Shown one piece after another: positions 1,716 through 64,000 of a stretch of 64,000 nt of DNA. Source of the stretch: an uncultured delta proteobacterium (GTDB lineage Bacteria; Desulfobacterota; Syntrophobacteria; BM002); the NCBI GenBank assembly GCA_963712115.1, contig CAVQGX010000030.1:170856-234855 (forward strand), in the 5' to 3' direction. Within the stretch, counting starts at the first letter, position 1. The number at the start of each line of letters is the position of its first letter. A program made the position numbers and the translations under genes. The notes under the pieces were generated by a model that worked only from the letters and a program-made list of their open reading frames with translations, was not told the DNA's origin and did no database searches.

Positions 1716-1734
1716 CGCGCTTAGCGCGTCAATA
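1710..1734. other. Perfect 11-bp hairpin overlapping the uvrB stop codon
   Basis: tattgacgcgc-tta-gcgcgtcaata; no U-tract, so not called a terminator. Confidence 0.6.
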
Positions 1735-1810
1735 GCGAGACTGGATGTCGGGGGGAAAGCGATTTGATGTCCCCGTCTCGCACCTCTTGCCAGTCTCGCA
1801 CGTCTCGCAA
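1735..1810. repeat. GCGAGAC / CGTCTCGC(A/C) 9-mer family with inverted arms
   Basis: gcgagactgg followed by ccgtctcgca-cctcttgcc-agtctcgca-cgtctcgca. Confidence 0.7.
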
Positions 1811-1841
1811 TTTGCTGTCGTTGGTAATTGGACACACTAAC

Positions 1842-3701
1842 ATGACCAAACCCAACAAACTTAAGGAAAAGCTGGACAACTTTCCCTCAAGCCCTGGTGT
1901 TTATCTTATGAAGGACTCCCGGGGCAAAATTCTCTACGTGGGGAAAGGAAAGGACCTGCGCAAGCGGGTTCTTTCATACTTCCAGGGAAAGGATCACTCT
2001 TCTCCCAAAATCAGGGTGCTGGTCAAGAAGGTCTCGGATTTAGAGTTCATTATCACAGGTTCAGAGAAAGAGGCACTTATTCTTGAGTCAAATCTTATCA
2101 AACACCACCGGCCCCGATACAACGTAGTCCTCCGGGATGACAAGAGATACCTGGTCCTGCGCTTGGATCCGAAGGAAGATTATCCAAGGCTAACCCTGGT
2201 GCGGAGCATCCGTAGAGACGGTGCCCTTTACTTTGGCCCATACGCTTCAGCCCATGCAGTGAGGCAGACTCTCAAGATGTTACACGGTATGTTCCCTTTG
2301 CGTCAGTGCAGTGGCCGCAAGTTTAAGAGCCGCCAGCGCCCCTGTTTGAATCACCAGATGGGCCGTTGCCTTGGATTGTGCGCCGGCACCGTCACACCTG
2401 GGGAATATGCGCCGGTAGTTGAGCAGGCCGTGCTTTTCTTGAGGGGTCGCACTCGGGACCTGCAGATTAAATTGCGGCGGGAAATGGAGCGAGCTGCTGA
2501 TGGGCTCGAGTTTGAAAAGGCCGCTATGTATCGAGACCGTCTGAAAGCGGTGGAAAAGACTCTGGAGAAGCAGCTAATGGTTTCTTCCCGCTTTCGAGAT
2601 CAGGATGTGATTGGCACGCATGAATCCGGAGAAAATCTTGGCCTGGCAATCCTCTTTATCAGAGAAGGCCGCATGGTTGGGAGTCGGGCCTTTGTCTTCA
2701 AAGACAGTAAGAACAGCGCGCCGGAGATATTGCGCGGTTTTATTCTGCAATATTACGACAAGGGCAAGTCGATCCCTGAAGAAATATTGATGAGTGAATC
2801 TGTCTTAGAACAAGATTTACTGGCGGAATGGCTATCAGACCTTAAAGAGAAACGGGTCACCCTTCGGGTCCCTAAAAGAGGAGAGGGTAGGCGCTTATTG
2901 ACCATGGCCTGTCAAAATGCAGCGAACTATGTAATGAGTGAAATGCCAAGGCCTACCGATCCTCTTCCTGCGTTGGAGCGATTACAACAAAGGTTGGAGT
3001 TGGAATCTTTTCCCCATCGCTTGGAGTGTGTTGACATATCCAATTTCCGCGGCCAGTTTCCGGTGGGTTCGCTTGTGGTTTTTGAGGATGGTGAGCCGGA
3101 CAAATCGGCCTACCGCAGGTATCGTATCCGGGATGTTGTTCAGATAGACGATCCAGCGATGATGGCTGAAGTTATAAAACGAAGGTTCACTGATGAACGA
3201 GACTCGAAAGTGTTGCCAGATCTTCTCGTGGTTGACGGTGGAAAGGCGCAACTTAACCAGACCATGGCGATCCTTGATGACCTCGACTTGAAGTGGATGG
3301 TACCGGTGGTGGCCCTGGCGAAGAAGCAACGGCCAGCAGAGCAGGCTGAACCAGGTAAAAGTGACCGGCTTTATCTGGCGGGAAGAAAGACTCCTTTGCT
3401 ACTTAAGAATGATCCGCCATTACAATTTCTCCTTGGCCGCCTGCGCGATGAGGCCCATCGTTTTGCCATAGAGTATTATCAAAAACGTCACCGCAAAAGC
3501 ACACTTCACTCCCGACTGGATGATATTCGTGGAATAGGACCTAAACGACGTCGCGCTTTGATTCAATATTTCGGCTCGGTAAAGCAGTTGGCTAAAGCCA
3601 CTGTTGAGGAAATTAGTGAGGTTGCAGGGGTCAGCAGTAAACTGGCAGAAGAGATCTTATTTGCTTTGAGAAGTAATTCCTCTGACAAAATGACAATTTA
3701 G
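1842..3701 (+). CDS. uvrC: Excinuclease ABC subunit C
   Basis: GIY-YIG (PGVYLMKD..ILYVGK), Cys cluster, UVR, RNase H-like domain (DISN, VDGGK), HhH GIGPKRR; start set at MTKPNK. Confidence 0.98.
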   Translation: MTKPNKLKEKLDNFPSSPGVYLMKDSRGKILYVGKGKDLRKRVLSYFQGKDHSSPKIRVLVKKVSDLEFIITGSEKEALILESNLIKHHRPRYNVVLRDDKRYLVLRLDPKEDYPRLTLVRSIRRDGALYFGPYASAHAVRQTLKMLHGMFPLRQCSGRKFKSRQRPCLNHQMGRCLGLCAGTVTPGEYAPVVEQAVLFLRGRTRDLQIKLRREMERAADGLEFEKAAMYRDRLKAVEKTLEKQLMVSSRFRDQDVIGTHESGENLGLAILFIREGRMVGSRAFVFKDSKNSAPEILRGFILQYYDKGKSIPEEILMSESVLEQDLLAEWLSDLKEKRVTLRVPKRGEGRRLLTMACQNAANYVMSEMPRPTDPLPALERLQQRLELESFPHRLECVDISNFRGQFPVGSLVVFEDGEPDKSAYRRYRIRDVVQIDDPAMMAEVIKRRFTDERDSKVLPDLLVVDGGKAQLNQTMAILDDLDLKWMVPVVALAKKQRPAEQAEPGKSDRLYLAGRKTPLLLKNDPPLQFLLGRLRDEAHRFAIEYYQKRHRKSTLHSRLDDIRGIGPKRRRALIQYFGSVKQLAKATVEEISEVAGVSSKLAEEILFALRSNSSDKMTI

Positions 3702-3720
3702 TATTATTATTTAAATATTT

Positions 3721-3842
3721 AAGGTTTCAGTGTTCAGTGTTCAGGTTTCAGCTTTTATGTTTCTTTTTCCTGACACCTGAAACCCGAAACCCGACACCTA
3801 AGACCCTGAGATTTGGTGCTTGGAATTTGTAGTTTTGCAATG
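3721..3842. repeat. GGTTTCA/GTGTTCA ... CTGACAC heptamer hairpin plus TTTGGTGCTTGGAATTT arm
   Basis: Inverted heptamer arrays around a T-rich loop; homologous to 22372-22500 and 52484-52611. Confidence 0.8.
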
Positions 3843-3914
3843 GACGCAGGGGGCAGCTCAAAGCCGGACACTTTGGAATTATTCTATTGATTGCCCAGAG
3901 AGGAGAACAGGCAG

Positions 3915-5390
3915 ATGGAAGAGGTAAGAGTTCGTTTCCCGCCCAGTCCCACTGGATACTTACATATCGGTGGAGCCAGAACCGCTATCTATAACTGGCT
4001 TTTTGCTCAAAAGACAGGAGGAAAGTTTATCCTCCGCATTGAGGACACTGATGTTGAACGGTCCACCAAAGAATCTATCAGGGGCATTGTGGATGGGCTC
4101 GACTGGCTTGGAATAACCTGGGACGAAGGTCCTTATTTTCAATCGGCCTATGCGGATGATCACCGGAGAGCGGCGCAGAAATTGGTGGAGATCGGTCATG
4201 CTTACAAATGCTTCTGTACCCAAGAGGAACTGGAAGGAAAGCGACAAGAGGCAAAAAGGAGAAAGGAAGACTATCATTACGACGGCACCTGCCGAAACCT
4301 TTCTGTTGATGAAGTAAAGCGATTGGAGGCTGAGGCCAGACCCTACGTGATTCGTTTCAGGGTGGTTCGTGGTCCAGGGGGTGTGGTTTTTCAAGATGCG
4401 GTTTACGGAGTGATAGAGAAGAAATACAGGGATATTGAAGACTTCGTTATCCTTCGCTCCGATGGTTCTCCCCTCTATGTTCTTTCCAACGCCGTGGATG
4501 ATATCCGCGATCGAATTACCCATGTGATTCGAGGTCAAGACCATCTGGCCAACACACCCAAGCAAATAATGATTTATGAGGCCCTTGGAGAAAAGTTGCC
4601 CCGATTCGCTCACATGCCACTTACTCTGGATCCACAAAAGCGCAAGATTTCCAAAAGGGCTCACGGTGAGGTGGTGTCAGTGCAGTATTATCGTGAGCGG
4701 GGCTTCTTGCCCTGGGCTCTGGTTAATTTCCTTGTTCTCCTGGGATGGTCCACTTCAGATAATCGGGAGATTTTTTCTCAGGCGCAACTCATTGAGGCTT
4801 TTTCTTTGGAAGGCATCAACCGGGCAAATTCCGTATTCGACATTCGCAAGGATGACCCCAAGTTCTTCACCGATCCCAAGGCGATAAGTATCAATGCCCA
4901 TTACTTACGAACTATTGAGGTTGAAGAGTTGTTGCCTTACGTACAAGCAGAAATGGAGGCAGCCGGGTTGTGGGATCCCGCCTTCGGTTCCGAAAAAAAA
5001 TCCTGGTTTGCCTCCACCGTGGACCTCATCCGCAGCCGTTACCACACCACAAAAGATTTCGTCAATCTGGGACGATGTTATTTTGCAGATGACTTCCCAA
5101 TTGAAGACCAGGTGCTGCGCAAGAACATCTTGAAGCATGAAAATCTCAAACAATGGCTGCCCTTGATGGCGGACCGGCTAGAAGAACTGGAAGAGTTCAC
5201 CGTCGATCTGATAGAGCAGGTTATCCGTGACCTTGCTGCCGAGTTGGATGTCAAGGCAGGGATTCTCATAAATGGCGCACGGGCTGCTGCTACCGGGCAG
5301 GCTGCCGGGCCCGGTCTTTTCGAGGTGCTCGCAGCTGTGGGTAAAGAGAGAGTGCTGCACCGTCTGCGAGAAGCCCCCAATTTGTATTAG
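3915..5390 (+). CDS. gltX: Glutamate--tRNA ligase
   Basis: RVRFPPSPTGYLHIGG (HIGH), KISKR (KMSKS), anticodon-binding domain. Confidence 0.97.
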   Translation: MEEVRVRFPPSPTGYLHIGGARTAIYNWLFAQKTGGKFILRIEDTDVERSTKESIRGIVDGLDWLGITWDEGPYFQSAYADDHRRAAQKLVEIGHAYKCFCTQEELEGKRQEAKRRKEDYHYDGTCRNLSVDEVKRLEAEARPYVIRFRVVRGPGGVVFQDAVYGVIEKKYRDIEDFVILRSDGSPLYVLSNAVDDIRDRITHVIRGQDHLANTPKQIMIYEALGEKLPRFAHMPLTLDPQKRKISKRAHGEVVSVQYYRERGFLPWALVNFLVLLGWSTSDNREIFSQAQLIEAFSLEGINRANSVFDIRKDDPKFFTDPKAISINAHYLRTIEVEELLPYVQAEMEAAGLWDPAFGSEKKSWFASTVDLIRSRYHTTKDFVNLGRCYFADDFPIEDQVLRKNILKHENLKQWLPLMADRLEELEEFTVDLIEQVIRDLAAELDVKAGILINGARAAATGQAAGPGLFEVLAAVGKERVLHRLREAPNLY

Positions 5391-5508
5391 AAATAACACA
5401 CCGCCTGCCTCTAAATCCCCCATAAATTTTCCTTTAGGCGAAGAGGATATGGCTGATCAGTCTTCTCTGACGCTGGCACGTTTCTTGAACGTATTACTCC
5501 CTGCACTA

Positions 5509-5703
5509 TAACCCGGATGTTTTATGAATTACTTACTACGACCACGGATATGGTCATCCTTCCGTGCGTCCTCGGGTGTTGGCCCCTGCGACGTACCATT
5601 CAGGTACGCCTCGGATCCAATCCCGCGGTACCGCGGGACGGTTGCCCGGTGGCACGCCCATCTTCGTGGTCTCGTGACAGCAATTCATGAAACATCCGGG
5701 CTA
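5509..5703 (+). mobile_element. MITE copy 1 (195 bp including flanking TA)
   Basis: Terminal inverted repeats ta(a/g)cccggatgttt(t/c)atgaat / attcatgaaacatccgggcta; internal palindrome tcccgcggtaccgcggga; three more copies in window. Confidence 0.9.
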
Positions 5704-5770
5704 AGACTTTTAAAGATGCGGAGAAGAATTTTGAGTGGAACTTAGCTGGTCAGAGAGGAGTAGGTGTTAA

Positions 5771-6280
5771 ATGACACTCGGTGAACTGCCTTCTAGCGGA
5801 ATTTACATTGATATTGCTTTAGGGCTGGTGGTACTGCTAGTGCTGTTCTATCAGATGGCCGCACAGCAGAGAGCAAGGAAAAAAATTGGCGAGCTGGAGA
5901 AACGAATCGCCGCAGCTGAGGAAGTCCAGGCGGCGGTGTTCGCCAACTTGGAAAAGAAGGCTAATGCATTAAAGGAAATAGTCTTTGAGAAAACAAAGCC
6001 CATGACTAACAAGCTCAATGAACTCTCCAAGAAAGCCAGCATAATGCTCGAGAAAAATGAAGCGGTCCGACGTGAGTTGGAAGATCAAATAGGACCCCTC
6101 AGATCTTCAATAGATGAAACAACTACCAAATTTAATTCCTCCCAGGATGCCATAAGGCAAGTGGTCCAAGATGGTAAGAACGAGATCGAGAGAATGACAA
6201 AAGAAGTAGAAGGGTTTAAAGAGGAAATCAAAAAAGTAAAAGATTTCATCCGGGACGGCATTATTGACGTTGAGCTATAG
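5771..6280 (+). CDS. Single-TM coiled-coil hypothetical protein
   Basis: N-terminal hydrophobic helix (IDIALGLVVLLVLFY), then a heptad-rich K/E helix; RBS gaggag upstream. Confidence 0.8.
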   Translation: MTLGELPSSGIYIDIALGLVVLLVLFYQMAAQQRARKKIGELEKRIAAAEEVQAAVFANLEKKANALKEIVFEKTKPMTNKLNELSKKASIMLEKNEAVRRELEDQIGPLRSSIDETTTKFNSSQDAIRQVVQDGKNEIERMTKEVEGFKEEIKKVKDFIRDGIIDVEL

Positions 6281-6283
6281 CCC

Positions 6284-7378
6284 ATGAAAGAAAGCAACGC
6301 TACCATCCTTTTCGCCGACCTCATGAATTCTACGGAGTTGGCCAAGAACCTTACCCTGCTGGAATACGATGACATGCTCGTCGATTTTCAGAACACCATG
6401 TTCGAGGTGGTTTCTCACCACCTGGATTACTTTGGATATGAAGGGGAGGGCGTGGACTCGGAATGGTCAATCTCTGGAGACGAACTTAGAGTTTTCCTCT
6501 ATTCCGACAACATGGATTTCGATATTCGCAGCGCCCTGCTGATAGCCACCAAGATCAAACTTGCCTGGCTGTCTTCAGGCTTCAACCAAAGAGTGCTCAG
6601 CGAACAGCGGCTGGTATCTCGTATCGGAGTGGGTATCAATTGCGGCAAGGTGATAAAAGATGTCAGGCCATGGCGGGTGAAGATAGGCAAGGCGGGGCAA
6701 AATATTGAAGGTTACGCCATCAATCTGACCAAGCGTATAGAGTCAGCCTCGCGGGAAGGCAACGTTTATCAGATCATGGTCGGTGCCAGTCTCTACAAGA
6801 GATGTCAGCAAAACAAACGAATGAATGTGGCTTTCAGCCACCCGAGGAGTCTGGTTTTTAAGGGTCTTGGCCAAAAAATACCGGTGTACGAGGTTGTTTC
6901 TTTTATCAACTTCGAGATATTGCCCTCCATGCCCGCCCCCTTACAAGAGGGTCTCATGGAAAAGATGGAGAACACCGTTCGAGATGCTATGCCCGAACCG
7001 TGGATTTTTATCGTTCTCTTGCGTTCTTACATTTCCATGTTGGCCTCAAGTCGCGACGAGTACGCCGATGTCAAAGCAGTGGAGCTTGCCCAACAGGCGC
7101 TGGACGTGGTGGATTACAAGCCGGTTATTTACAATATGCTGGGGTGGCTTTACACTAATGGTAAAAATGTTCGGAATTTGGAAATGGCCTTTCACTATCT
7201 TGACCAGTGTCTAGGCCTAGAGCCCAAGAATGAAGCTGCCCTTTTGCACCGGGCTAGAATTCTAGAGGAGATGGGCCAGACCGATCTTGCCCGGCATGCC
7301 TATCAAGAAATTCTATTTCAAAACCGAGAACACCCCATAGCAAGAAGAAAACTTGCCCAGTACCAGGTCGCCAATTAG
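6284..7378 (+). CDS. Class III nucleotidyl cyclase domain + C-terminal TPR
   Basis: TILFADLMNST, SISGDEL, RIGVGINCG, GYAINLTKRIES; TPR-like helices (YNMLGWLY, LEPKNEAALLHRARILEEMGQ). Confidence 0.85.
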   Translation: MKESNATILFADLMNSTELAKNLTLLEYDDMLVDFQNTMFEVVSHHLDYFGYEGEGVDSEWSISGDELRVFLYSDNMDFDIRSALLIATKIKLAWLSSGFNQRVLSEQRLVSRIGVGINCGKVIKDVRPWRVKIGKAGQNIEGYAINLTKRIESASREGNVYQIMVGASLYKRCQQNKRMNVAFSHPRSLVFKGLGQKIPVYEVVSFINFEILPSMPAPLQEGLMEKMENTVRDAMPEPWIFIVLLRSYISMLASSRDEYADVKAVELAQQALDVVDYKPVIYNMLGWLYTNGKNVRNLEMAFHYLDQCLGLEPKNEAALLHRARILEEMGQTDLARHAYQEILFQNREHPIARRKLAQYQVAN

Positions 7379-7534
7379 TGTCGATAAAACCGTTTACATC
7401 GTTGAAGTCGTTCAAATCGTAGAAACCGTCCATCACAGAGGTCAGAAGTCGGAGATCAGAGATCAGCTTTAGCTCTGACCTCTACCTGCTGCCAGCTGTA
7501 TTTCCCCATGCCCTTTGCGCTATGCTCTATGCCC
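7379..7534. repeat. Composite short-period arrays between convergent genes
   Basis: 9-mer (aaccgttta/catcgttga/agtcgttca), TCAGAGG/TCAGAGA heptamers with inverted tctgacctct, GCTATGC heptamers. Confidence 0.75.
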
Positions 7535-8074
7535 TCAAAAAGAGATGGGCTCAACATCGTCCTCGTTGAGTTCTACTGAAACCGCCTGTTGAATAATATC
7601 TATGGCCACTACCAATCTTGATTTCTCATGCTTCTTGCGAACCAAAATCCCTTCACAACCATAGAGAGGGCCATTGACAATCCTTACTAGCATTCCTTCC
7701 TTTAAATAGGGATGAACCGTAAGCACAGTGGCGTTGCTGAGAAGTGTTATCAGGCTGCTCATCTGACTGTCAGGTACTGGCAGGGGGCCGTCCTCGTTGC
7801 GAACTATTCGGACAACTCCAGGTGTCTGCAAAATCTTCAATTGTTCGTAGTTGTCGAGTGAGGCACGCACAAAGAGGTAGCCAGGGAAAATCGGCATCTG
7901 GATCTTTTTGCGTCGGTCCCTCCGTTTACTCCAGCGCTCCATCTGCGGCAAGAGACAGTCGAAGGACTTGGCCAGCAAACGAGAGTATACCTTGCTCTCG
8001 TGGCGAACCTGGGCGTAGACGGCATACCAAGCTGGTGTCATATGAGAGACCGGATCTGTCATTACTTGTTCCAA
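7535..8074 (-). CDS. NusG paralog (UpxY/LoaP/RfaH-like antiterminator)
   Basis: NGN domain WYAVY..RHESKV..PIFPGYLFV; KOW GMLVRIVNGPLYGCEG. Confidence 0.9.
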   Translation of the reverse strand: MEQVMTDPVSHMTPAWYAVYAQVRHESKVYSRLLAKSFDCLLPQMERWSKRRDRRKKIQMPIFPGYLFVRASLDNYEQLKILQTPGVVRIVRNEDGPLPVPDSQMSSLITLLSNATVLTVHPYLKEGMLVRIVNGPLYGCEGILVRKKHEKSRLVVAIDIIQQAVSVELNEDDVEPISF

Positions 8075-8145
8075 TATGAAGATATTATCCAGCCAGAATC
8101 TCTGGATGGATATTACTAATGCAATCCTTAAAGAAACGGTCCCCC

Positions 8146-8363
8146 TAGCCCGGATGTTTCATGAATTGCTGTGGCGAGACCACGAGGATGGCTGTGCCAC
8201 CGGGCAACCGTCCCGCGGTACCGCGGGATTGGATCCGAGGCGCACCTGAACGGTACGTCGCAGGGTGAGCTTGTCCTGAGCCCGTCGAAGGAACACCCGA
8301 GGACGCCCGGAAGGACGGTCATATCCGTGGTCGCAGTAAGCCATTCATGAAACATCCGGGCTA
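8146..8363 (-). mobile_element. MITE copy 2 (inverted, 218 bp, carries a 26-nt insert)
   Basis: ctagcccggatgtttcatgaat ... attcatgaaacatccgggctag; insert at 8266-8291. Confidence 0.9.
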
Positions 8364-8580
8364 GTGTTTCAAAGGATGGTATCGCTCCGTTCTTCTGGTT
8401 GTCAAGAATTAATTGGCGGGCCGAATTACCCATTGAATACCCTCCTTGATACCACTTGACAAAGCAGGTTAAATAAACGAAATAATAGGAACCTTCAGCT
8501 AGCCGCGTCATTCACGAATCCTTTTGGAGTTACCCGTAGACAATCTACCTGGTAATATCGCCAGTAAGGGAGCCGCTGAT

Positions 8581-9372
8581 ATGGCTCAGTTGCAAGTTCA
8601 AGATCTTCACTTAATTTTTGGCGGCTTAACCGCTCTCAACGGCATTAGCCTTTCGGTACATTCAGGTGAAATTTTTGCCATCATTGGTCCCAACGGTGCT
8701 GGTAAGACCTGCATTCTGAATTGTATTTGCAGGTTCTACCATCCGGACCAGGGCAGCGTTACCTTTGAAGGCCAGGAAATCACCAATTTTGCCCCCCACA
8801 AGATAGCAGGATTGGGCATAGCCCGAACTTTTCAGAACATTGAACTGTTTCAGGGAATGACTGTGTTGGACAATATTAAGCTTGGGGCACATGTCCACTT
8901 GCAATCTGGTTTTCTCGCCGGCGGCTTTTACTGGGGTAAAGCTCGCAGAGAGGAGATAAAGCTCAGGCGGGAGGTGGAGGAACAGATCATTGACTTGTTG
9001 GAAATCCAGGCTATTCGCAAAAAAATCGTTGGCACTCTGCCTTACGGCTTGCAGAAGCGAGTAGAATTGGCCCGTGCTCTGGCCATGAGGCCAAAGATTT
9101 TACTTCTAGATGAACCCATGGCAGGGATGAATTTGGAAGAAACAGAGGACATGGCTCGCTTTATACTAGATATTAATGAAGAGAGGGGAGTGACTATAGT
9201 TCTTATCGAACACGATATGGGCGTGGTCATGGACATTTCAGACCGGGTTTTCGTGCTTGATTTCGGCACTAGAATTGCCGAAGGGCCGCCGGAAGAGATC
9301 CAGCATAACGAACACGTGATAAATGCCTATTTGGGCGGCTCGGATGCGGCATTTTCCAAATTGGGAATTTAA
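8581..9372 (+). CDS. Branched-chain-type ABC transporter ATP-binding protein (LivG-like)
   Basis: GPNGAGKT, ARTFQNIELF, LPYGLQKRVELARAL, LLDEP, IEHDM. Confidence 0.93.
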   Translation: MAQLQVQDLHLIFGGLTALNGISLSVHSGEIFAIIGPNGAGKTCILNCICRFYHPDQGSVTFEGQEITNFAPHKIAGLGIARTFQNIELFQGMTVLDNIKLGAHVHLQSGFLAGGFYWGKARREEIKLRREVEEQIIDLLEIQAIRKKIVGTLPYGLQKRVELARALAMRPKILLLDEPMAGMNLEETEDMARFILDINEERGVTIVLIEHDMGVVMDISDRVFVLDFGTRIAEGPPEEIQHNEHVINAYLGGSDAAFSKLGI

Positions 9373-9376
9373 GACC

Positions 9377-51435: not shown

Positions 51436-51436
51436 A

Positions 51437-55819: not shown

Positions 55820-55933
55820 GGGGTATTTTCTAGCATCCTGCTTGGGATGCCTTCGCAAAAGAAAGGTCGCCGAAGTAACCTAAGAAAGTATTAGTAAATC
55901 CTCCTCCCTTGAGTAAGTGTTGCTGGCTTCATT

Positions 55934-56590: not shown

Positions 56591-57088
56591 ATGGAACAGA
56601 CAACGGCCACAATTGAAACAAAATTCGGCGAGATCACTTTGAAATTTTTTCCCGAAGTTGCTCCTAACCACGTGAACAGTTTTATCAAATTGGCAAGCGA
56701 TGGCTTTTACGATGGTACCACCTTTCACAGAATTGTTCCTGGGTTTGTCATCCAAGGGGGTGACCCCAATACAAAGAGCGACGACAGGTCAAGACACGGC
56801 ATGGGCGGTCCCGGCTTCACCCTGAAGGCAGAATTCAGTAAATTACCTCATAAGAGAGGTAGCCTTTCCATGGCGAGAGCTGCACATCCTGACAGTGCCG
56901 GCTCGCAATTCTTCATTTGCGTTGCTGATGCACCATTTCTGGATGGTGAATATACGATCTTCGGTGAGGTCGTCGAGGGGATGGATGTGGTGGACAAGAT
57001 CGTCTCTCAAGCAAAGGACCAGAGAGACAATCCTATCGAACGGGTCGAGATGAAAGTCAAGGTGGTGGCTCCTAAGGAGAAGCCCTAG
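56591..57088 (+). CDS. Peptidyl-prolyl cis-trans isomerase (cyclophilin)
   Basis: FYDGTTFHRIVPGFVIQGGDP, SMAR, GSQFFI, YTIFGEV. Confidence 0.96.
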   Translation: MEQTTATIETKFGEITLKFFPEVAPNHVNSFIKLASDGFYDGTTFHRIVPGFVIQGGDPNTKSDDRSRHGMGGPGFTLKAEFSKLPHKRGSLSMARAAHPDSAGSQFFICVADAPFLDGEYTIFGEVVEGMDVVDKIVSQAKDQRDNPIERVEMKVKVVAPKEKP

Positions 57089-57101
57089 GACAGAGGACAA
57101 A

Positions 57102-57256
57102 ACAGCTGGCAGCGGGCAACTGGCAGAACGCAGAAATCGGAGGTCGGAAGTCAGAGGTCAGTGGACATGGTTAAAACTGATCTCTGACCTCCGACTTCTG
57201 ACCTCTATGATAGACGATTTAAACGATTTGACTAATTAACAAATTACCTAATTGAC
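57102..57256. repeat. TCGGAGG/TCAGAGG ... TCTGACC heptamer hairpin plus 8/9-mers between convergent genes
   Basis: aatcggaggtcggaagtcagaggtcag ... ctgatctctgacctccgacttctgacctct. Confidence 0.85.
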
Positions 57257-57257
57257 C

Positions 57258-59213
57258 CTAAGCTGACTTCGCTGGAAGCGAAATAGTGATGGTGCACCCT
57301 GGACCGTGGTTGTTGTCCGCTTTGACCGAGCCTCCCATAAGAGTGACAAGTTTATTCACCAAGGCCAGCCCTATGCCGGTTCCCCCGGTGGTTCGGGTGA
57401 CGTCACTGTCCACCCGATAGAAATCATCGAAAACTTTTTTTAGATCATGACGAGGTATGCCCGGTCCGGTGTCGGATACGCTGATCTTCGCCATATCCGG
57501 CTCGGAATAAACCTTGATGGTAATTTCGCGACTGGGCATGGACTTGCCGAACTTCATGCTGTTGTCGATCAGATTGATGAGGATTTGAATCATTGCTTCC
57601 CGGTCATACTTGAATGGTGGTAACTCTTCCATTTCCACCTTCAGGCTGAATCCTTCCTGCCGAAGTTTTTCCTGCATGACCTCTTTTACTTCTTGAATGA
57701 CCTCTTCCAAGGTGCCCTCTCTAAGGTCTAGACGGGTCTGTTGCTTCTCGAATTTGGAAAACTCCAGAACATTGTTTATTAAACGAGACAAACGGGAACT
57801 CTCTGACCCCAATATCCTGAAGTACTCTTGCTCCCGCTCTGGGTCACGGGCTATTCCTTGCTCCAGCATTTCTATGTACATTCGAATGTTTGTCAGTGGA
57901 GTTTTCAACTCGTGGGTAACTGATGAGACGAATCTGGAACGGCGCTCTGACAAAGCCATCACTCCCCTGGCACTTTGATAGATGGCGAAAAGTCCCATTA
58001 GGACAATAAAGGCAAGGACAACCATCATTATGTTCAAAGTGCTCCGGCCCACCGATCTTGGTATGCGGTCGCAAGTGAGGGTTGCCCGGAGGAAAGAGAA
58101 GGGGCGGGGAAAGGTCCGTTCAAGGGAGAAGTTAGCATGTTGGACAGTGGCACCAGACTGATGTGAGGTTGTTTCTTCGCCCCGGTCTATTACTGACAAG
58201 CGTAGATTGGCAAAGGCCGCCATGGGCTGCCTAGAAAAGTACTCTTCTGCCAGGTGGGCTAGAAACTCGTTTACCAGTAAAACGAACCCCTGGCGAAATA
58301 TCTGGTTATTAATCACAATACGTCTGAAGATAAAAATCTGCCGGTCATTAATGAAAACGGCTTGCAGGGGGTCCACTTCAACCTGGAGCTTTGCTGAATC
58401 CATTAAAGGGGAAGGGGCTGAAGGTCGGATAGGGGCAGCTCCATATCTGCCCTCAGGCACAACCCCTTTATCCTTGATCGGTTCGCCGGATGTGCGAACA
58501 CCTACTTCAGAGAGGGCCTCCTTCGGTGCCTCTTCTTCGGCTTGTGTCTCTGGTTGTTGCCATCTCTGAGTTGCCGGCTGCTCCTGATCTCTTCGGGCAA
58601 GGTTGACCGCCTGGTCGGGCGTGATCTCCTCAACTCGTGATTTTTCCTGACCAAGAGAAGCTCTCGAGCTTTTTTTGGATCGGGAAAGATCAAGATACTT
58701 GTCGGCAAAGGTTGAAACTTGTTCTTTCTCCCTCTTTGCCAGTATTTCAGCAGATTTGGCTTCTGCGGGCTCGGCCACCGTAGTTCTTTTTTGATTGAAG
58801 ATCTTGTTTGCTTCATTTAATTGAGCCACCAGTTGGGTCCGCTCCGGTGGAATGGCTTCGTCACTCTTCAAAAGAGGCGTTTGAAATGATCCATCCGGGT
58901 CGTTTTGGAGATAACCGAGAATATAGGCTTTCTTGGAGGGCTGAGAAAGGGGTGAGGGTATAAGGTCCTGGGGAGCAGATATTTCCTGTGAGGGGGCGTA
59001 ATAGTAGCGGTACTGGTCGACAGGCCTAGCTTCCTCCTCCAGAACAAAAGAGGCAAGCTCTTCCTCCATCTGGTCGAAGAGGGTCACGGCAAAATAGCGA
59101 AGCTCTGAGATTTCCTCCTGCTCCAGACTCCAGTAGGTTCGCAGGACGAAATAGCCGAGTGGGATCGACAGGGCCACGCAAAAAATAAGTATTAGTATCT
59201 TAAGTTTTTTCAA
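57258..59213 (-). CDS. Sensor histidine kinase (2 TM, large periplasmic region)
   Basis: VTHELKTPL, NLIDNSMKF, DTGPG, GGTGIGL. Confidence 0.95.
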   Translation of the reverse strand: MKKLKILILIFCVALSIPLGYFVLRTYWSLEQEEISELRYFAVTLFDQMEEELASFVLEEEARPVDQYRYYYAPSQEISAPQDLIPSPLSQPSKKAYILGYLQNDPDGSFQTPLLKSDEAIPPERTQLVAQLNEANKIFNQKRTTVAEPAEAKSAEILAKREKEQVSTFADKYLDLSRSKKSSRASLGQEKSRVEEITPDQAVNLARRDQEQPATQRWQQPETQAEEEAPKEALSEVGVRTSGEPIKDKGVVPEGRYGAAPIRPSAPSPLMDSAKLQVEVDPLQAVFINDRQIFIFRRIVINNQIFRQGFVLLVNEFLAHLAEEYFSRQPMAAFANLRLSVIDRGEETTSHQSGATVQHANFSLERTFPRPFSFLRATLTCDRIPRSVGRSTLNIMMVVLAFIVLMGLFAIYQSARGVMALSERRSRFVSSVTHELKTPLTNIRMYIEMLEQGIARDPEREQEYFRILGSESSRLSRLINNVLEFSKFEKQQTRLDLREGTLEEVIQEVKEVMQEKLRQEGFSLKVEMEELPPFKYDREAMIQILINLIDNSMKFGKSMPSREITIKVYSEPDMAKISVSDTGPGIPRHDLKKVFDDFYRVDSDVTRTTGGTGIGLALVNKLVTLMGGSVKADNNHGPGCTITISLPAKSA

Positions 59214-59908
59214 TGTTCAGGCTCCAAACGGTATCCTTCACCCCGGACAGTGAGGATGAAGGGAATATCGTCTATAAGACTGCTGATTTTTTTTCTTAAT
59301 TTGAGCATGTGGATGTCAACGGTTCGGGTCTCAATGTCCGGGTCTGCATAGTTCCAAACCTCGGTGAGGAGTTCTTTCTTGGAAACAATCTGGTCCCTTT
59401 TGCGATGCAAATAAAGAATGATGTCCATCTCTCTTCTCGTCAGCTCTATGACGCGTTCGTTATAAGAGGCTATGAGTGTCTTGCCGTCAAAAAAAATACC
59501 ATGAGAATTGATCTGCTCATCCCCCAGATTCTTTCCAGCTCTCCTCAGCACTGCCTCAACCCGGACCATCAGTTCTCTGAGTGAGAAGGGTTTACTCACG
59601 TAATCGTCTGCGCCGGCCTTGAAACCGCTCACTATGTCGTCCTCTGAGCCTTTAGCTGTAAGGATAATGATTGGCTGATTTGGCTTTTCTTTCCGAATTT
59701 GTTTGCAAATACTGAAACCATCCAGGGTAGGAAGCATCACATCCAGGATGATCAAATCGTGTCTCTCTTCCAAAGCCTTCTCCAACCCCTCGCCACCATC
59801 TTCCACGCCTGCGGCTTGGTAACCGTTGAACACAAGAACGTCGACAAGCCCCTGGAGGATTGCCGTATCGTCTTCTACCACAAGTATGCTCGCCTTAGGT
59901 CTCTTCAT
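59210..59908 (-). CDS. OmpR-family response regulator
   Basis: ILVVEDD, LDVMLP, GADDYVSKPF, RTVDIH..LRKK, TVRGEGY. Confidence 0.96.
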   Translation of the reverse strand: MKRPKASILVVEDDTAILQGLVDVLVFNGYQAAGVEDGGEGLEKALEERHDLIILDVMLPTLDGFSICKQIRKEKPNQPIIILTAKGSEDDIVSGFKAGADDYVSKPFSLRELMVRVEAVLRRAGKNLGDEQINSHGIFFDGKTLIASYNERVIELTRREMDIILYLHRKRDQIVSKKELLTEVWNYADPDIETRTVDIHMLKLRKKISSLIDDIPFILTVRGEGYRLEPEH

Positions 59909-59928
59909 CGGGTCCTATTTACCTCATC

Positions 59929-60021
59929 CAGCAGTAAGCAGTAAGCGGTAAATCGTAAAAACCGTAGAAATCGTAAAAGTCGTCAAGTCGTTAGCTCACA
60001 GCTGATAGCTCACAGCTCACA
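59929..60021. repeat. GCAGTAA, 9-mer and AGCTCAC arrays abutting the IS remnant
   Basis: gcagtaagcagtaagcggtaa-atcgtaaaa-accgtagaa-atcgtaaaa ... agctcacagctgatagctcacagctcac. Confidence 0.8.
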
Positions 60022-60023
60022 GG

Positions 60024-60755
60024 AAGATTGTCATCTGTCGTCGACCTCGTGCTGAAAATGATGACCGCGCCATATTTAAGTCGGCGGTTCAACACTATAT
60101 AGATCTTCGCGATCAGCAGGTGGTGTTGAAGAACAAGATTAAAGCTATGTACCGTCACTGGGGTGTTATTGAGGTAACAGGCCAAGCCGTCTATGGCACC
60201 AGCCGTGATGATTATCTGCAAAGGGTGAAGCATCTTCATATTCGCAATCAACTTCATCGTCTCTATTGTCTAATGGATGAAACCGAGTCCATGCAAAAAA
60301 GAGCTCTTAAGGCAATGAAGCAACTCGGGCGTAAATATCCTGAGATCAAAGAATTCGAAAAGATGCCTGGCATAGGGGAGATTCTTTCCCATATTTTCGA
60401 TGCCTTCATTCAAACTCCCCACCGCTTTGCTCATAAGCGTAAACTCTGGCGCTATTGCCGCTTAGGGATCACCGATCGCTCCAGCGACGGTAAACCGCTG
60501 GGATTTAAACGGCTGGACAGATCCGGTGTCTCAGAACTCAAAGCCTTGAGCTATCGAGCATGGCTTGGTGCCATGGGAGGCGATAACGAGGTTAGAAAGT
60601 TTTACTCACGCTCCTTGCGGCAGACTCTAAGCCATGTCCATGCCAGACTCAATACCCAGCGAAAGATCATTGCCGTCATGTACGGCATGTGGAAAAGAGG
60701 AGATGCCTATAGGCCTGAACTGTTCCTGGATTCGCCACAGATGAACGTTGTCTAA
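60024..60755 (+). pseudogene. IS110-family transposase, 5'-truncated (RuvC/DEDD domain missing)
   Basis: MPGIGEIL, HRF..KRKLWRYCRLGITDRSSDGK, RKIIAVMYGMWK; in-frame stop at 60006-60008 inside a repeat array and no N-terminal DEDD domain. Confidence 0.8.
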
Positions 60756-61265
60756 AGGAGACAGCACCATTAACTGGACTGAAGTGCGCAGACCAGTCCG
60801 GCGGATCCGGGTTGCCGGGTGAGTCTCGATCAATAGACGTCTAGCCACCCCCGATGCTTCGGGGCGACAGGCTCGACCTCTGGATAGGCCCCCGGCCTTT
60901 ATACCCAATGTGACCCTAGTCATTTTCCTCTCAGGAAAAACAGACTCATATATCTGACTGGAAAGAACACGGCCCGCACTGTCATGTTGATCCGATCACC
61001 CGACTGTGTATGCACACTTCATAAGTTAAGTGATGGTCTGCTCCCACATGGCCAAACTTCACGTTTCAACTTATCGTCTCGCCCGTCTCGCTTCTCTATG
61101 CTCCATGCTTATTCAATACAAGAATTGTTCCAGGTTGCAAGCAAAAGTTATGTAAAAAAATCCCAGTGTTTATTTGCACTTCTTTGAATTGTGTTTCAGT
61201 TTCATTCCGCTACCATGGGAAGTAAGACGCGCGTCACCCAATTTTGAACAGAAAGGAGTAAAACC

Positions 61266-62693
61266 ATGAAAAGGAATAAACTGAAACCGTTAATCTTGGT
61301 GGGATGCTTGTTAACCATCACCTGTGCAGCGCTAGTTTATGCTAGCAAAGGAGGTCCATTCCATATATGGTCGCCCCCGGTGATCTCAGGGAAAAACGGC
61401 ATCGTTACTCTCTCCGGCAATCTCACCCAGAACAAAGTTCTCTATGGTGGAGACGGCACAGCAGCATTGGCACTGACTTTGAGTGCTGATGAAGTTCTAG
61501 ATCTGGATCTGGGAGAAGCTAACCATGTGGATATGGTGATCGTTCTGGACCGCAGTGGTTCCATGGGCGGCAAAAAGATCGCAGATGCCAAAATGGCCGC
61601 CCTGAATCTTCTGTCCAATTTAACTTCAGCTGATCGGTTTGGACTGGTGACCTACTCTGATGGTGTCCAAAGACGGTCGAACTTGATCAAGGTCACACCT
61701 GACAACCGCAAACGGCTGGAATCAATCATCAGAAGTATATCAGCCGGCGGAGCAACAAATCTCGGGGCCGGCCTGCAGGAAGGAATTGATCTCCTGCTCT
61801 CAGCCCGAAAGATGGGTAACATCCGCAGAGTCATTCTCATTTCAGACGGTCTTGCCAACAGGGGAATTACTGACCCGGTTTCCCTGGGAAACATGGCCAC
61901 CATTTCTGTGGAAAGTGAGTTTGCTGTCAGTACTGTGGGAGTAGGCTCCGATTTCAACGAGCACTTGATGACCTACATTGCTGACCGTGGTGCAGGTAAC
62001 TATTACTATTTGGAAAACCCCAACCTCTTTGCTGAGGTATTTCTCAAAGAGTTCAAAATCACCAGAGCTGCAGCTGCAACTTCAGTGGAGGTGCGCATAC
62101 CACTGAAGGATGGTCTTACGGTTGTAGATGCATCCGGATACCCCATCCAAATCAAAAATGGTCAGGCAGTAATTCAGCCGGGCAATTTGCTCTCCGGTCA
62201 GAGCAAAAAGCTTTTTCTTACTCTAAGAGTTCCTACCCACAGGGAGCAAACATTTGAAATAAAGGGAATCAATGCTCGCTACAGGTACGAGGGGAAACCC
62301 TATGAGGTTAGCCTGGCTGAGGGATTCCAGCTCGCCTGTGTGAAAGATCAGCAGCAGGTCTATGGATCAATCGATAAAAACGAATGGGAAGAGAAGGTGC
62401 TCAAGGATGACTTCAACAAACTCAGAGAGGAAGTGGCGGCTGAGATCAAAAAGGGTAAGCAGGATCAGGCCATGAAACGAATTGATGAGTACTACAAGGA
62501 ACAACAGTCGGTCAATGCGGTGGTTGCTTCGCCCAAGGTGGCTACCAGCCTGGAAAGAGACCTCGAGGAGCTTCGTGGAGTGGTAAATGAGACCTTCCAG
62601 GGAGAGCCCCAGGAGGTGGAGATTAAACAAAAGAAAAACTCCAAGTCCCTCCAGTACGAAGGCTACAGGGGAAGAAGGAGTAAGAGTGACTAG
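61266..62693 (+). CDS. Exported vWA domain protein
   Basis: Signal/TM; MIDAS DRSGSM, GATNL, ILISDGLAN, GVGSDFN. Confidence 0.92.
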   Translation: MKRNKLKPLILVGCLLTITCAALVYASKGGPFHIWSPPVISGKNGIVTLSGNLTQNKVLYGGDGTAALALTLSADEVLDLDLGEANHVDMVIVLDRSGSMGGKKIADAKMAALNLLSNLTSADRFGLVTYSDGVQRRSNLIKVTPDNRKRLESIIRSISAGGATNLGAGLQEGIDLLLSARKMGNIRRVILISDGLANRGITDPVSLGNMATISVESEFAVSTVGVGSDFNEHLMTYIADRGAGNYYYLENPNLFAEVFLKEFKITRAAAATSVEVRIPLKDGLTVVDASGYPIQIKNGQAVIQPGNLLSGQSKKLFLTLRVPTHREQTFEIKGINARYRYEGKPYEVSLAEGFQLACVKDQQQVYGSIDKNEWEEKVLKDDFNKLREEVAAEIKKGKQDQAMKRIDEYYKEQQSVNAVVASPKVATSLERDLEELRGVVNETFQGEPQEVEIKQKKNSKSLQYEGYRGRRSKSD

Positions 62694-62827
62694 GCACTAT
62701 GCACTAAGCACTAGGCACCGAACCGAAGGAGATAAACAACCAAAAAGTTTCCAACCGCAGAGAGATATTTGCAGTGCGCATGGTGTCAACGCTATGCGCT
62801 CTGCGCTCTGACGAAAAGGAGGAAAAA

Positions 62828-63382
62828 ATGGGCATCATGACGAGATTTATGAGGTTATGCAAGGCAGATATTCACGGTGTTATGGATCAACTGGAGGACA
62901 AGGGCCTTCTTCTCAAGCAATACCTCAGGGACATGGAGGAGGAGCTTGGTCAAAAAGAGGCCAGACTGAGAAAACTGGTAGTGTCCAGGGATAAACTTCA
63001 ACAGGATTGTGACAAGTATTCGGGCGAATGTAAAAAACTGGATGCAGATATCGAATCTGCCCTCAAAAAGGGCAAGGATGACATTGCTCGCCTGCTCATC
63101 AAGAAGCTCAAACCCATGACCTCTCACCGGGATGAACTCACTCGTCACATTCAGAATCTGGGTAGGGAGATAACCCAGTTTCACGGACTGATTGAAGAGC
63201 AACGCCTCCAATATGAACAACTCGAGCTCAGGGCAAAGGAATACTTCCATAGGGAAGAGCGAGAAAAATGGGAAATGACCATAGCCTCAACCATTCCTTC
63301 TCCTCCGTCCGGGGAGCCAAGCGAAGAAGAGGTTGAACTGGAGTTGCTCAAACGCAAGGAAGCAGTCAAGGGAGGTGAATAG
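62828..63382 (+). CDS. PspA/IM30 family protein
   Basis: MGIMTRFMRLCKADIHGVMDQLEDK..LKQYLRDME..GKDDIAR..VELELLKRK. Confidence 0.85.
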   Translation: MGIMTRFMRLCKADIHGVMDQLEDKGLLLKQYLRDMEEELGQKEARLRKLVVSRDKLQQDCDKYSGECKKLDADIESALKKGKDDIARLLIKKLKPMTSHRDELTRHIQNLGREITQFHGLIEEQRLQYEQLELRAKEYFHREEREKWEMTIASTIPSPPSGEPSEEEVELELLKRKEAVKGGE

Positions 63383-63384
63383 CA

Positions 63385-63939
63385 ATGAATATATCAAGGA
63401 GACCAATGTTTACAACCATCATCTATGGATTACTGGCAGGCACGTCCTTCATCCCGATGGTAATGGTGATGAGTAGCCTTCTCCATTGGACTGCGGCCTT
63501 CAGGTTAACAATCTGGCTTGTCCTGGCTGGATACCTGGTTATTCTGACCAGGTGGGGAAGGGTAAGCTTGCTTTCTATACTGTTTCCACTCCTGCTTCTG
63601 CTACTCCTGGTGTTTTGGGGAGACACAAATAGCGCTTTCCTCTTTCTGGCGCTGGGAGTTCTCAGCTGGGTGCGAAGCGGTATTTGCTTCCAGGGAGGTT
63701 TGCTGAAGTCACTTGTTACTGAAGTTGCCCTCTCCCTTGGAGCGGGAGCGCTGGTGGTCTTTTTCACCCCCCATTCCACCATAACCTGGGGAGTGGCGGT
63801 GTGGATGTTCTTTCTGGTCCAGTCTGTCTATTTTGTTGTTTTCGCCGATTTTGGGGAGAAACAAGAGGAACAAATGGAACTTGATCCTTTCCACCAGGCC
63901 AGAACCCGAGCAGAGAGAATATTGTCAACAGGATCTTAG
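63385..63939 (+). CDS. Multi-TM hypothetical membrane protein
   Basis: About six hydrophobic segments; RBS ggaggt; coupled to the pspA-like gene. Confidence 0.8.
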   Translation: MNISRRPMFTTIIYGLLAGTSFIPMVMVMSSLLHWTAAFRLTIWLVLAGYLVILTRWGRVSLLSILFPLLLLLLLVFWGDTNSAFLFLALGVLSWVRSGICFQGGLLKSLVTEVALSLGAGALVVFFTPHSTITWGVAVWMFFLVQSVYFVVFADFGEKQEEQMELDPFHQARTRAERILSTGS

Positions 63940-64000
63940 TGATGAATTCAATCTTTGTTCGCTCAATCGGCAAGTCCGGCAGGCAGCTTGCAGCTAGCAG

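Follow-up and report, generated by a model that had tools for sequence, protein, structure and literature searches.

The intergenic spacers of the 64,000-nt stretch of DNA analysed here (the window; G000:C30:170856-234855, where G000 is our label for the genome holding it) carry numerous tandem arrays of 7-10-nt units, many of them paired as inverted arms. Overall, our analysis indicates that these arrays probably belong, as arms and chained modules, to a large population of small dispersed repeats that form hairpins. These repeats would represent the majority of a family of hairpin cassettes of the intervening sequence (IVS) type, a majority that lacks an open reading frame (ORF) and resembles miniature inverted-repeat transposable elements (MITEs), while the ORF-bearing members would hold in their loop a four-helix-bundle (4HB) gene or, less regularly, a GxxExxY gene. 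It is part of the same joint reading, and equally probable, that the elements and the 23S rRNA intervening sequence are of one kind, which in this genome has colonised mRNA spacers. By 4HB we refer to the family TIGR02436/PF05635, also called S23p and Avd-like, and by GxxExxY to TIGR04256, a PD-(D/E)XK family. The G000 assembly comprises 4.9 Mb in 70 contigs and is 94% complete, with 6% contamination. The relatives of its ArgG belong to uncultured Desulfobacterota of the Syntrophobacterales type, metagenome-assembled genomes labelled "Deltaproteobacteria bacterium". The genes identified in the window are uvrB, uvrC, gltX, hslU, argB/D/F/G/H, lysA, dapF, dapA, dapB, folK, and a LivM-type ABC permease.

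We took a census of non-redundant arrays of period 7-10 with Tandem Repeats Finder (TRF), considering ORFs from 100 amino acids upwards and the spacers between them that were 20 nt or longer. The window yielded 85 TRF rows, and 25 of its 43 spacers held one or more arrays; four additional arrays (at 1774, 24509, 41455, and 62790) lay in spacers overrun by crude ORF calls. The elements were all located between protein genes or beside tRNA genes. An initial annotation, made from the sequence alone, had counted about 30 array-bearing spacers and named a dozen or so unit families and the surrounding genes. The count agrees with ours, every family that it listed is present in the window, and protein identifications bore out the gene names.

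Genome-wide, the excess of arrays was large when compared with an order-3 Markov simulation of the same genome size: 2115 versus 81 rows at period 7, 426 versus 115 at period 8, 541 versus 88 at period 9, and 455 versus 16 at period 14. For arrays of periods 7-10 with a score of at least 40, the counts were 1168 and 9. Most of the period-7 rows (1704 of 2115, 81%) fell mostly outside long ORFs, which make up 83% of the genome. The 3218 non-redundant arrays covered 1.8% of the genome and were short: the median was 3.9 copies, and arrays of more than 5.5 were rare. They occurred in 688 of 2199 co-directional spacers (31%), 174 of 490 convergent spacers (36%), and 141 of 534 divergent spacers (26%). 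As the initial annotation had anticipated, the units clustered into shared families across the genome, the commonest being ACTAGGC (144 arrays), ACCTCTG (equivalent to TCAGAGG; 120), AAATCCG (103), and the GCATAG[A/G/C] group (63-68 each); in total there were 1039 canonical unit types, many differing by one substitution. In many window spacers (3702..62773), arrays often started at or overlapped the stop codon of the upstream gene. The units GCATAGC, GCAGTAA, and CACTAGG contain stop triplets, and as 7 is not divisible by 3, a run of three such units provides a stop in each frame.

The arrays are paired in inverted orientation far more often than chance would allow. Among 1312 adjacent array pairs, 187 were inverted neighbours, compared with 33.4 +/- 5.5 (maximum 46) in 200 shufflings of the partners, and 33 inverted pairs lay in the window. 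The usual arm consisted of three to five degenerate 7-nt units, less often of 8-10-nt units, and the opposite arm was its reverse complement. The eight hairpins named in the initial annotation all exist, seven of them in our list of inverted repeats and the one at 3721 in the sequence and its predicted fold, so its view of left arms matched by reverse-complement right arms holds. Eight window hairpins were tested for folding (six of the named ones and those at 45170 and 52533), with z-scores between -2.7 and -7.4. When the arrays of a pair were separated by 100-600 nt, inverted pairs outnumbered direct ones (57 versus 17), while beyond 600 nt inverted pairs were no commoner than direct ones (183 versus 194). 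The enclosure of ordinary genes at these wider gaps (thioredoxin, TatA, AtpC, NuoJ/K, dUTPase, and others among 30 ORFs scanned) was therefore put down to chance.

To characterise copy number, eleven window hairpins and modules were compared against the whole genome. The GGTTTCA/GTGTTCA hairpin after uvrC (3718..3798; arms 3718-3763 and 3775-3798; fold z -2.7) had 21 full-length copies with a conserved loop, and a second inverted repeat of the GGTTTCA family (52536..52605; fold z -4.7) had 29. The layout of this family is GGTTTCA-GTGTTCA-GGTTTCA, a loop TTT(T/A)(A/C)CCTTTATTTTTCTTTTT, and CTGACAC-CTGAAAC. The TCAGAGG hairpin (57103..57253; arms 57131-57161 and 57177-57205; fold z -7.4), flanked by CAGCTGG and ACTAATTA arrays, occurred in 30 full-length copies. 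The largest family was that of a 160-nt inverted repeat (32832..32991) with 44-nt arms (AAATTCG/AAATCCT/AAGCACG) and a 72-nt centre, for which 43 copies of about 77% identity were found. Finally, a composite module in the argB-argD spacer, followed by a TTACCGC array (41300..41479; TRF), had 4 full-length copies. Of this module, 131 nt recur at 54792-54922, 13.5 kb away, with 98.5% identity; the contig has two further occurrences.

In alignments of these families, the loop and the sequence of variant units were common to the copies, and the flanks were unrelated. Such sharing among 21-43 copies means that the arrays are not independent products of slippage, an explanation that the initial annotation had already judged inadequate. 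We conclude that whole elements have been copied to new spacers as DNA. The TCAGAGG element carries a conserved CAGCNGG array upstream and a GATGGACGA-CTTCAACGA run downstream; the chaining of different arrays within one spacer is thus partly the copying of one composite element as a whole. In the 160-nt element (32832-32991 and its 42 other copies), the arms and the inner stem (...CAAAAC/GTTTTG...) were conserved, and about 25-30 nt at the centre were hypervariable, with a different sequence in each copy.

The window itself holds no 4HB or GxxExxY gene, in line with what the initial annotation had stated: profile comparison located 13 TIGR02436 loci (3 with internal stops) and 5 GxxExxY genes in G000, all of them elsewhere. 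Inverted repeated arms bracketed all 13 4HB loci, for example (GAGGTCA)7...(CTGACCT)4, GCATGGA/CTCCATG, GGTCATTA/GACCTAAT, and GCGAGACGA/CGTCTCGCC. For GxxExxY, clear arms, of the CACGAAG or CGCAGAGAA type, were found at three of the five genes. To quantify the arms, we took 170 nt on either side of each gene and locally aligned the upstream segment with the reverse-complemented downstream one, using mismatched flank pairs (for percentiles) and 250 random small ORFs of G000 as controls. The 44 4HB loci tested came from G000 (13), from ten other Desulfobacterota genomes (19), and from mostly cyanobacterial plasmids (12). The alignment score exceeded the 99th percentile of mismatched pairs at 32 of these loci and the 95th at 40, compared with none of the 250 random ORFs. 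The statement in the initial annotation that similar arrays flank both gene families thus holds for the 4HB genes and in part for GxxExxY.

This architecture extends across phyla. Twenty 4HB loci in ten other genomes, including Geobacter, Geotalea, and Geomobilimonas, were built alike, each with a unit of its own. In a plasmid collection, 24 of the 28 records with a 4HB match were cyanobacterial, and inverted tandem arms flanked the gene in 8 of the 12 plasmid loci read, e.g., CAGGAGT/CAGAATT in Nostoc punctiforme. One of the sampled copies, on an Azospirillum lipoferum plasmid, lies inside a large-subunit (LSU) rRNA gene (RF02541, 499 bits) with arms of tandem heptamers, and is therefore a classical intervening sequence. 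The 4HB proteins matched the solved structures 2RLD and 2GSC, both deposited with five chains. An AGGGG(G)CAC leader directly 5' of the start codon was common to many of the G000 4HB and GxxExxY cassettes, which, for unrelated gene families, hints at a common cassette context. On plasmids of Pseudanabaena galeata (L200) and Anabaena sp. 90 (L202), a 4HB gene with long heptamer arrays was situated between cas6 and cas4 in a CRISPR-Cas locus; the Pseudanabaena flanks, (AAAAGCT)16 and (AAAAGCC)n, are direct and not inverted.

The ORF-less elements and the cassettes are connected by their sequences. ORF-less TCAGAGG copies aligned to the cassette at G000:C30:124460-124834 in two blocks, one on each side of the ORF. 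The left block spans 28-32 nt at 86-90% identity, and the right block 41-51 nt at 90-94%, extending into non-repeat sequence; the window copy at 57128, for instance, matched the cassette's right end with 94% identity over 49 nt. This two-block match was obtained for four of the five copies tested, while the fifth gave short matches inside repeat units only. Likewise, the GCGAGACGG unit family, which forms a hairpin in the argG-argH spacer of the window, also provides the arms of the 4HB cassette at G000:C30:122789. More generally, 794 of 2051 period-7 arrays lay within one mismatch of seven cassette-arm heptamers, compared with 762 for seven units drawn from the arrays and a mean of 256 for random heptamers. 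Cassette arms and genomic arrays are drawn from one pool.

Filled and empty alleles of one spacer could be compared in an SOS-mutagenesis operon (lexA, imuB-like, dnaE2-like) upstream of the window (G000:C30:121500-125000; L128 3000-6500). Three consecutive spacers, namely upstream of lexA, lexA-imuB, and imuB-dnaE2, each hold a 4HB cassette co-oriented with the operon; in each, the left arm is followed by a short leader that contains a ribosome-binding site, then by the ORF and the right arm. The imuB-like protein owes its final ~20 residues and its stop codon to a (GAGGTCA)n array, and this tail varies among congeners. Among nine same-genus loci, the lexA-imuB spacer was readable in 8, of which 4 were filled, 1 held a remnant, and 3 were empty; the imuB-dnaE2 spacer, readable in all 9, was filled in 5 and empty in the other 4. 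Each of the four occupied lexA-imuB alleles had an arm family of its own, and their 4HB genes differed, so this one spacer has been filled more than once. In L180, the empty allele consists of a mini-hairpin, (GCGAGACGA)2-GAG-CTCGTCTCGC, and GCGAGACGA is the arm unit of the filled allele in G000. In the lexA-imuB spacer of L181, both arms and the 3' 155 nt of the 4HB gene remain. This remnant was 92% identical to the intact cassette in the imuB-dnaE2 spacer of the same genome and 86% identical to the intact lexA-imuB cassette of L183. The match to the cassette in the next spacer implies that an arm-ORF-arm unit was copied between spacers and that one copy is decaying. These alleles demonstrate both a cassette copied with its arms between two spacers and a cassette losing its ORF. 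The "emptied gene cassette" that the initial annotation had offered as one possibility thus gained support from the congener with a half-deleted cassette and intact arms and from the TCAGAGG copies that align to both cassette ends.

In the arg/lys/dap region, orthologous spacers differed considerably in length and content among relatives whose proteins are ~90% identical, while the unit vocabulary was shared. Only some hairpins were common to relatives; the GCGAGACGG hairpin of argG-argH, for example, recurred in L001 and L002 with other unit numbers. Stretch 40000-48000 of the window was recovered from sediment and estuary metagenomes of several studies. In two DNA and two RNA libraries, compared as contigs only (hence no RNA ends could be read), we found 7-nt deletions within arrays at 41460, 42820, and 47130, and nearly identical genes between which the entire spacer had been replaced. 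Contigs from the RNA libraries bridged spacers. The recurrence of the stretch, and the same architecture in finished plasmids of cultured cyanobacteria, indicate that the arrays are not an assembly artefact. Chimeric array joints in metagenome contigs (e.g., 41476 to 47178) may be assembly-graph artefacts and were not used as evidence. Unit number shifts by 7-nt steps in natural populations, and spacers are swapped wholesale between strains. The change in unit number looks like ordinary slippage, a process that the initial annotation underrated.

We also examined how the arrays are distributed relative to 4HB genes across genomes. All 17 same-genus genomes had 4HB hits, as did 37 of the 50 genomes behind the arg loci. 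The 13 genomes with no hit all showed background array density in the arg locus, and across the 50 genomes array density correlated with the number of 4HB hits (Spearman rho 0.41, p = 0.003; one locus per genome, uncorrected for phylogeny). For example, Desulforhabdus sp. TSK (L018) had no 4HB hit, and its arg/lys/dap spacers were short and without evident arrays. A 400-kb sample of Geomobilimonas luticola yielded only 22 arrays scoring 40 or more, clustered at a 4HB gene, an empty hairpin of like unit, and an accessory-gene island. This island (G042:C22, L173 7800-14200), which looks like a cassette array, comprises HepT/MNT pairs, PDDEXK_3 (GxxExxY-type), DUF2442, HTH, and Y1_Tnp genes, among which AATTCAA/TTGAATT arrays are interspersed. 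Genes of polysaccharide type (sugar-transferase, PglD-like, and DegT-family) follow ~3 kb downstream of it, on L174.

In the mechanism that we propose, the complementarity of the arms would arise when DNA is copied or the polymerase switches template, and would not be maintained by selection on RNA. Consistent with this, stem mismatches on the sense strand showed no wobble bias (109 G.U versus 117 A.C, p = 0.64), which makes DNA-level copying a better explanation of arm complementarity than RNA selection. The elements would be near-neutral passengers transcribed inside operons, their stems would be potential RNase III substrates by analogy with IVSs, and slippage would diversify the copied elements. 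Candidates for the spreading enzyme are the 4HB protein and the GxxExxY nuclease. The initial annotation had proposed a dedicated writing or spreading mechanism, for instance template-directed unit addition, and had suggested looking for the arms around RAYT or reverse-transcriptase genes. Of this, spreading persists, as hairpins recur 21-43 times. Template-directed addition does not, given that a search of the 94%-complete assembly gave no match to RVT_1, the reverse transcriptase profile. RAYT/IS200 involvement was rejected as well, for the four Y1_Tnp genes of G000 are flanked by IS200-type GC hairpins and not by arrays.

A simpler account dispenses with mobility altogether: the arrays would be local heptamer repeats generated by slippage, like the short tandemly repeated repetitive (STRR) sequences of cyanobacteria, with inverted arms formed by template switching, and 4HB genes would insert into, or survive in, the resulting hairpins. 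Slippage clearly operates, as the +/-7-nt polymorphisms inside arrays attest, and the 1039 unit types, many one substitution apart, the single-copy status of most hairpins, and the absence of wobble bias in the stems all fit this account. A heptamer excess in many bacteria has also been reported together with a slippage hypothesis in passages of PMC4692102. However, slippage does not explain why families of 21-43 copies keep their loop and exact order of variant units in unrelated flanks, why a 131-nt composite module recurs nearly unchanged 13.5 kb away, or why ORF-less copies and a cassette have non-repeat terminal sequence in common. Moreover, the array-poor Geomobilimonas has its few arrays precisely at a 4HB gene and an accessory-gene island. 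We thus consider it unlikely that slippage alone produced the arrays.

Less likely still is that the arrays are selected cis-elements of the host, such as sites of RNA processing or stability, terminators, translation signals, or binding sites of an oligomeric protein. This view draws on the occurrence of arrays in co-directional, convergent, and divergent spacers (31%, 36%, and 26%), on the RNA-library contigs that bridge spacers, and on the role of IVS stems as RNase III sites (described in part of PMC4990558). For Beggiatoaceae, the abstract and section 10 of PMC4679880 likewise propose TAACTGA repeats 5' of start codons as sites for regulators. A further point in its favour is the orientation of the 9-mers, including TTGAACGAY, 5' of start codons: they were almost always sense-oriented genome-wide (10:1, 9:1, and 10:0) and had no inverted partner. 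These 9-mers may be a separate, possibly functional class, given that their units resemble a -35 box; in the TCAGAGG family, they form the right end of the composite element. Host function is disfavoured by orthologous spacers that differ completely between relatives whose proteins are ~90% identical, by the short spacers without evident arrays in Desulforhabdus sp. TSK, by the equal frequency of G.U and A.C mismatches, and by hairpin families that follow no orientation rule. The hairpins matched no Rfam family; the scan of the window returned two tRNAs only. Intrinsic terminators were rejected specifically, as TTTT occurred within 12 nt at only 10 of 140 hairpins in co-directional spacers.

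Finally, a dedicated writer, that is, a reverse transcriptase or telomerase-like enzyme adding templated units, perhaps with an Avd-like 4HB protein as in diversity-generating retroelements (DGRs), is very improbable: 4HB proteins are relatives of Avd, with which the reverse transcriptases of DGRs are partnered (Pfam description; parts of PMC8934634), and the units are short and uniform in length, but the assembly lacks an RVT_1 match, arrays are short (median 3.9 copies), degenerate units are copied between loci in fixed order, and 1039 unit types would demand very many templates.

Several observations weigh against the reading that we prefer, of hairpin cassettes and their ORF-less majority. 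First, single-copy elements are frequent: 6 of the 11 window hairpins and modules had no second full-length copy, and 155 of 180 hairpin loops had no detectable relative, although these loops are short and the power of the comparison is low. Second, the signs of a conventional mobile element are missing. A known transposase does not accompany the elements, no target-site duplication was visible in alignments of the dispersed families, and these families occur in both orientations with no rule. Nor are they tied to stop codons, relative to which the initial annotation had wanted positions scored; such a tie, suggested at first by TAAGG starts, was rejected, since only 1 of 33, 0 of 35, and 2 of 43 copies lay within 10 nt of a stop. 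Third, the comparison of orthologous spacers suggested there gave filled and empty alleles at lexA-imuB-dnaE2, but none of the 13 arg/lys/dap loci read had a gene-filled spacer, and a 4HB gene occurred in 1 of 80 arg loci, elsewhere in that locus. The data would fit either direction, loss of the ORF from cassettes or insertion of ORFs into existing hairpin loops. When 91 loops of 45-700 nt were compared with the 4HB profile, matches were confined to 6 already known cassettes, so that ORF remnants are not generally visible. Fourth, some genomes had many 4HB hits yet background array density in the single locus sampled (G003 with 9 hits, G015 with 8, and G027 with 10). Four of the 12 plasmid loci were exceptions to the inverted arms, with direct flanks in Pseudanabaena and Gemmatirosa, a weak signal in Calothrix PCC 7716, and, on PCC 7120 gamma, no matching left arm within the 160 nt read. 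Furthermore, RNase III (TIGR02191, PF14622) was found in 15 of 17 same-genus genomes but neither in the 94%-complete G000 nor in two congeners; its absence is probably an assembly gap. Lastly, the cassette model leaves the sense-oriented TTGAACGAY 9-mers 5' of start codons unexplained.

A broader interpretation would unite the STRRs, the heptamer excess of bacteria, the 23S IVSs, and the orphan S23p/4HB and GxxExxY genes in one cross-phylum superfamily of hairpin cassettes. A pentameric 4HB protein would act in trans as the arm-recognising factor, with about one unit per subunit, and drive the copying of both ORF-bearing and ORF-less members. We put this forward tentatively, as an idea that is rather doubtful in its entirety.

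The remaining window features, detected by TRF unless stated otherwise, illustrate how diverse the arrays are. The uvrB-uvrC spacer holds a CGTCTCGCA x4 array (1774..1809), and a chain of AAATCGTTG x4.8, CAGAGAT x4.4, and CCCTATG x4.6 lies at 7387..7535. Within the ABC-transporter operon, an AACGCGG array is combined with a CACAGAG-type hairpin (12463..12616; arms 12524-12542/12597-12615; fold z -3.3) that is single-copy at full length. At 15192..16084, a 17-nt TCCCGTCTCGCCCGACC x3.6 array (15192-15253) is accompanied by GATTGTA/GATTGAA and GAAATCT arrays (15990-16084). On the plus strand, a chain of AGAGGTC x4.4, TTTCAACGA x8.3, and TTGACCAA x3.6 (16937..17154) has its latter two arrays directly 5' of the next start codon, and its 9-mers are of the strongly sense-oriented kind. 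The following spacers hold GAGGTCG and ACGATTTCT arrays (20737..20818), AGGTTTC/CTGACAC inverted arms of the GGTTTCA family (22373..22443), GCAGCAG and CAATCCG arrays (24459..24532), and GATGCTG x6.4 and ATTTTAGATC x2.7 arrays (32319..32416).

From hslU onwards, the biosynthetic genes are interspersed with hairpins. An ACTAGGC/GCAGTAA inverted repeat lies 5' of hslU (38101..38260; arms 38 nt, loop 84 nt; fold z -3.3), and a single-copy hairpin of GTCAAAT-type 8-mers, detected by TRF and as an inverted repeat, occupies the hslU-argB spacer (40198..40352). The argF-argG spacer contains a GGTCAAAT/GTCGAGTG 8-mer hairpin (43770..43914; fold z -4.7) and is replaced in other strains, and the GCGAGACGG hairpin of the argG-argH spacer lies at 45138..45255 (fold z -4.3). 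A GCAGTAA inverted repeat 5' of lysA (47130..47207; fold z -6.3) has 30-nt arms with 83% complementarity. The ATCCAGT x7 array of the dapF-dapA spacer (49494..49548) is kept with changes in the relatives L001 and L002. On the plus strand, the dapB-folK spacer holds a chain of ACAGCAG, ATTTACC, ACGACTTGA x5, and ACTAATCA (51436..51611), supported by TRF and by the spacers of relatives. The longest chain of the window, of six arrays (54774..55039), ends 5' of a tRNA gene (55098-55169; Rfam). Further downstream are a chain of AGCAGTA, AAATCGTAA, and AGCTCAC (59930..60022) and arrays of ACTAGGC x4.3 and CGCTCTG x3 (62689..62810). The 9-mers (TTGAACGAY/TTTCAACGA) and 8-mers (TTGACCAA, ACTAATCA) were observed directly 5' of start codons or of the tRNA gene at 17053-17154, 41422-41456, 51545-51611, 54911-55039, and 59950-59983.

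These results touch on puzzles that are decades old: the nature of the STRR heptamers, the origin of rRNA intervening sequences, and the role of S23p/4HB genes. Inverted tandem-heptamer arms that bracket a 4HB gene in Desulfobacterota, in cyanobacteria, and in an rRNA IVS tie the three together, and ORF-less copies of such arms reside in about a third of the intergenic spacers of G000. The origin of the repeats thereby becomes testable, for example in cultivable Geomobilimonas or Nostoc. The elements may move by a mechanism without a known transposase and, if the superfamily interpretation were true, without a transposase or reverse transcriptase of any known class. In practical terms, the arrays break short-read assemblies, confuse the prediction of operons and terminators, and rewrite the C-terminal tails of adjacent genes, as in imuB, whose tail and stop codon are replaced.

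Among known systems, the STRRs of heterocystous cyanobacteria are similar in their tandem 7-nt units, their many intergenic copies, and the presence of several families per genome, and cyanobacterial 4HB genes are themselves flanked by such heptamers (plasmid flanks). The host here, in contrast, belongs to the Desulfobacterota, and the unit sequences differ from STRR1-3. A cyanobacterial origin of the window was considered and rejected, as HIP1 occurred 29 times versus ~75 expected and the relatives are Desulfobacterota. The arms (GGGGACT)n/(TCCCCAG)n of a Geomobilimonas cassette equal what we take to be the STRR1 unit, CCCCAGT, while TTGACCAA merely resembles the presumed STRR2 unit. That arrays form the paired arms of dispersed hairpins and of 4HB cassettes, as they do here, was not found stated for STRRs. 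Earlier work on heptamers is summarised in passages of PMC4692102, which describe G-rich heptamers, inverted ones included, in Xanthomonas and Nostoc and cite the heptanucleotides of Calothrix, inverted GGGAATC arrays of Xanthomonas, and a report from 2007 that heptamers are over-represented.

The IVSs of 23S rRNA that carry an S23p ORF (Leptospira, Coxiella, Xanthomonas, Brucella) are alike in having terminal inverted repeats as a stem, a PF05635 ORF in the loop, and variable heptamers beside the ORF. In Coxiella, according to passages of PMC4990558, the IVS has an S23p ORF, a 28-bp terminal inverted-repeat stem, excision by RNase III, and a variable number of heptameric repeats, and is regarded as selfish and possibly once mobile. 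The Azospirillum plasmid rRNA gene contains exactly such a cassette with tandem-heptamer arms. A PF05635/TIGR02436 ORF in the loop was found at the 13 loci elsewhere in G000 and at none in the window. Unlike IVSs, the present elements reside in mRNA spacers and not in rRNA helices 25/45, most are ORF-less, and there are hundreds per genome.

REP/REPIN-RAYT systems also consist of short hairpin repeats in spacers, with a small gene between inverted copies and several families per genome. Here, however, the enclosed gene encodes a four-helix bundle without a known nuclease motif and not a Y1/HUH transposase, and the arms are internally tandem-repetitive. MITEs resemble our ORF-less elements in size (80-160 nt), inverted ends, tens of copies (here 21, 29, 30, and 43), unrelated flanks, and ends in common with a longer ORF-bearing element, as with the TCAGAGG ends and the 4HB cassette. 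They differ in that the parent here lacks a transposase (the cassette protein is not a known one), target-site duplication was not seen in the alignments, and the ends are degenerate tandem repeats that vary between families. The TAACTGA repeats, reported in the abstract and section 10 of PMC4679880 as direct repeats in marine Beggiatoaceae, cyanobacteria, and Bacteroidetes with a patchy distribution across phyla, are likewise intergenic heptamer arrays, often just 5' of start codons and mixed with other heptamers. In contrast to ours, they are almost solely direct repeats of one unit, and that abstract and section mention no link to hairpins or 4HB genes. A literature search whose scope stopped short of subscription journals, database family notes, and supplements found no link between genome-wide intergenic heptamer arrays and 4HB/GxxExxY cassettes or IVSs. 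STRR-like arrays and IVS-type cassettes are thus known kinds of element, while the connection between them and the scale of the ORF-less spread appear to be new.

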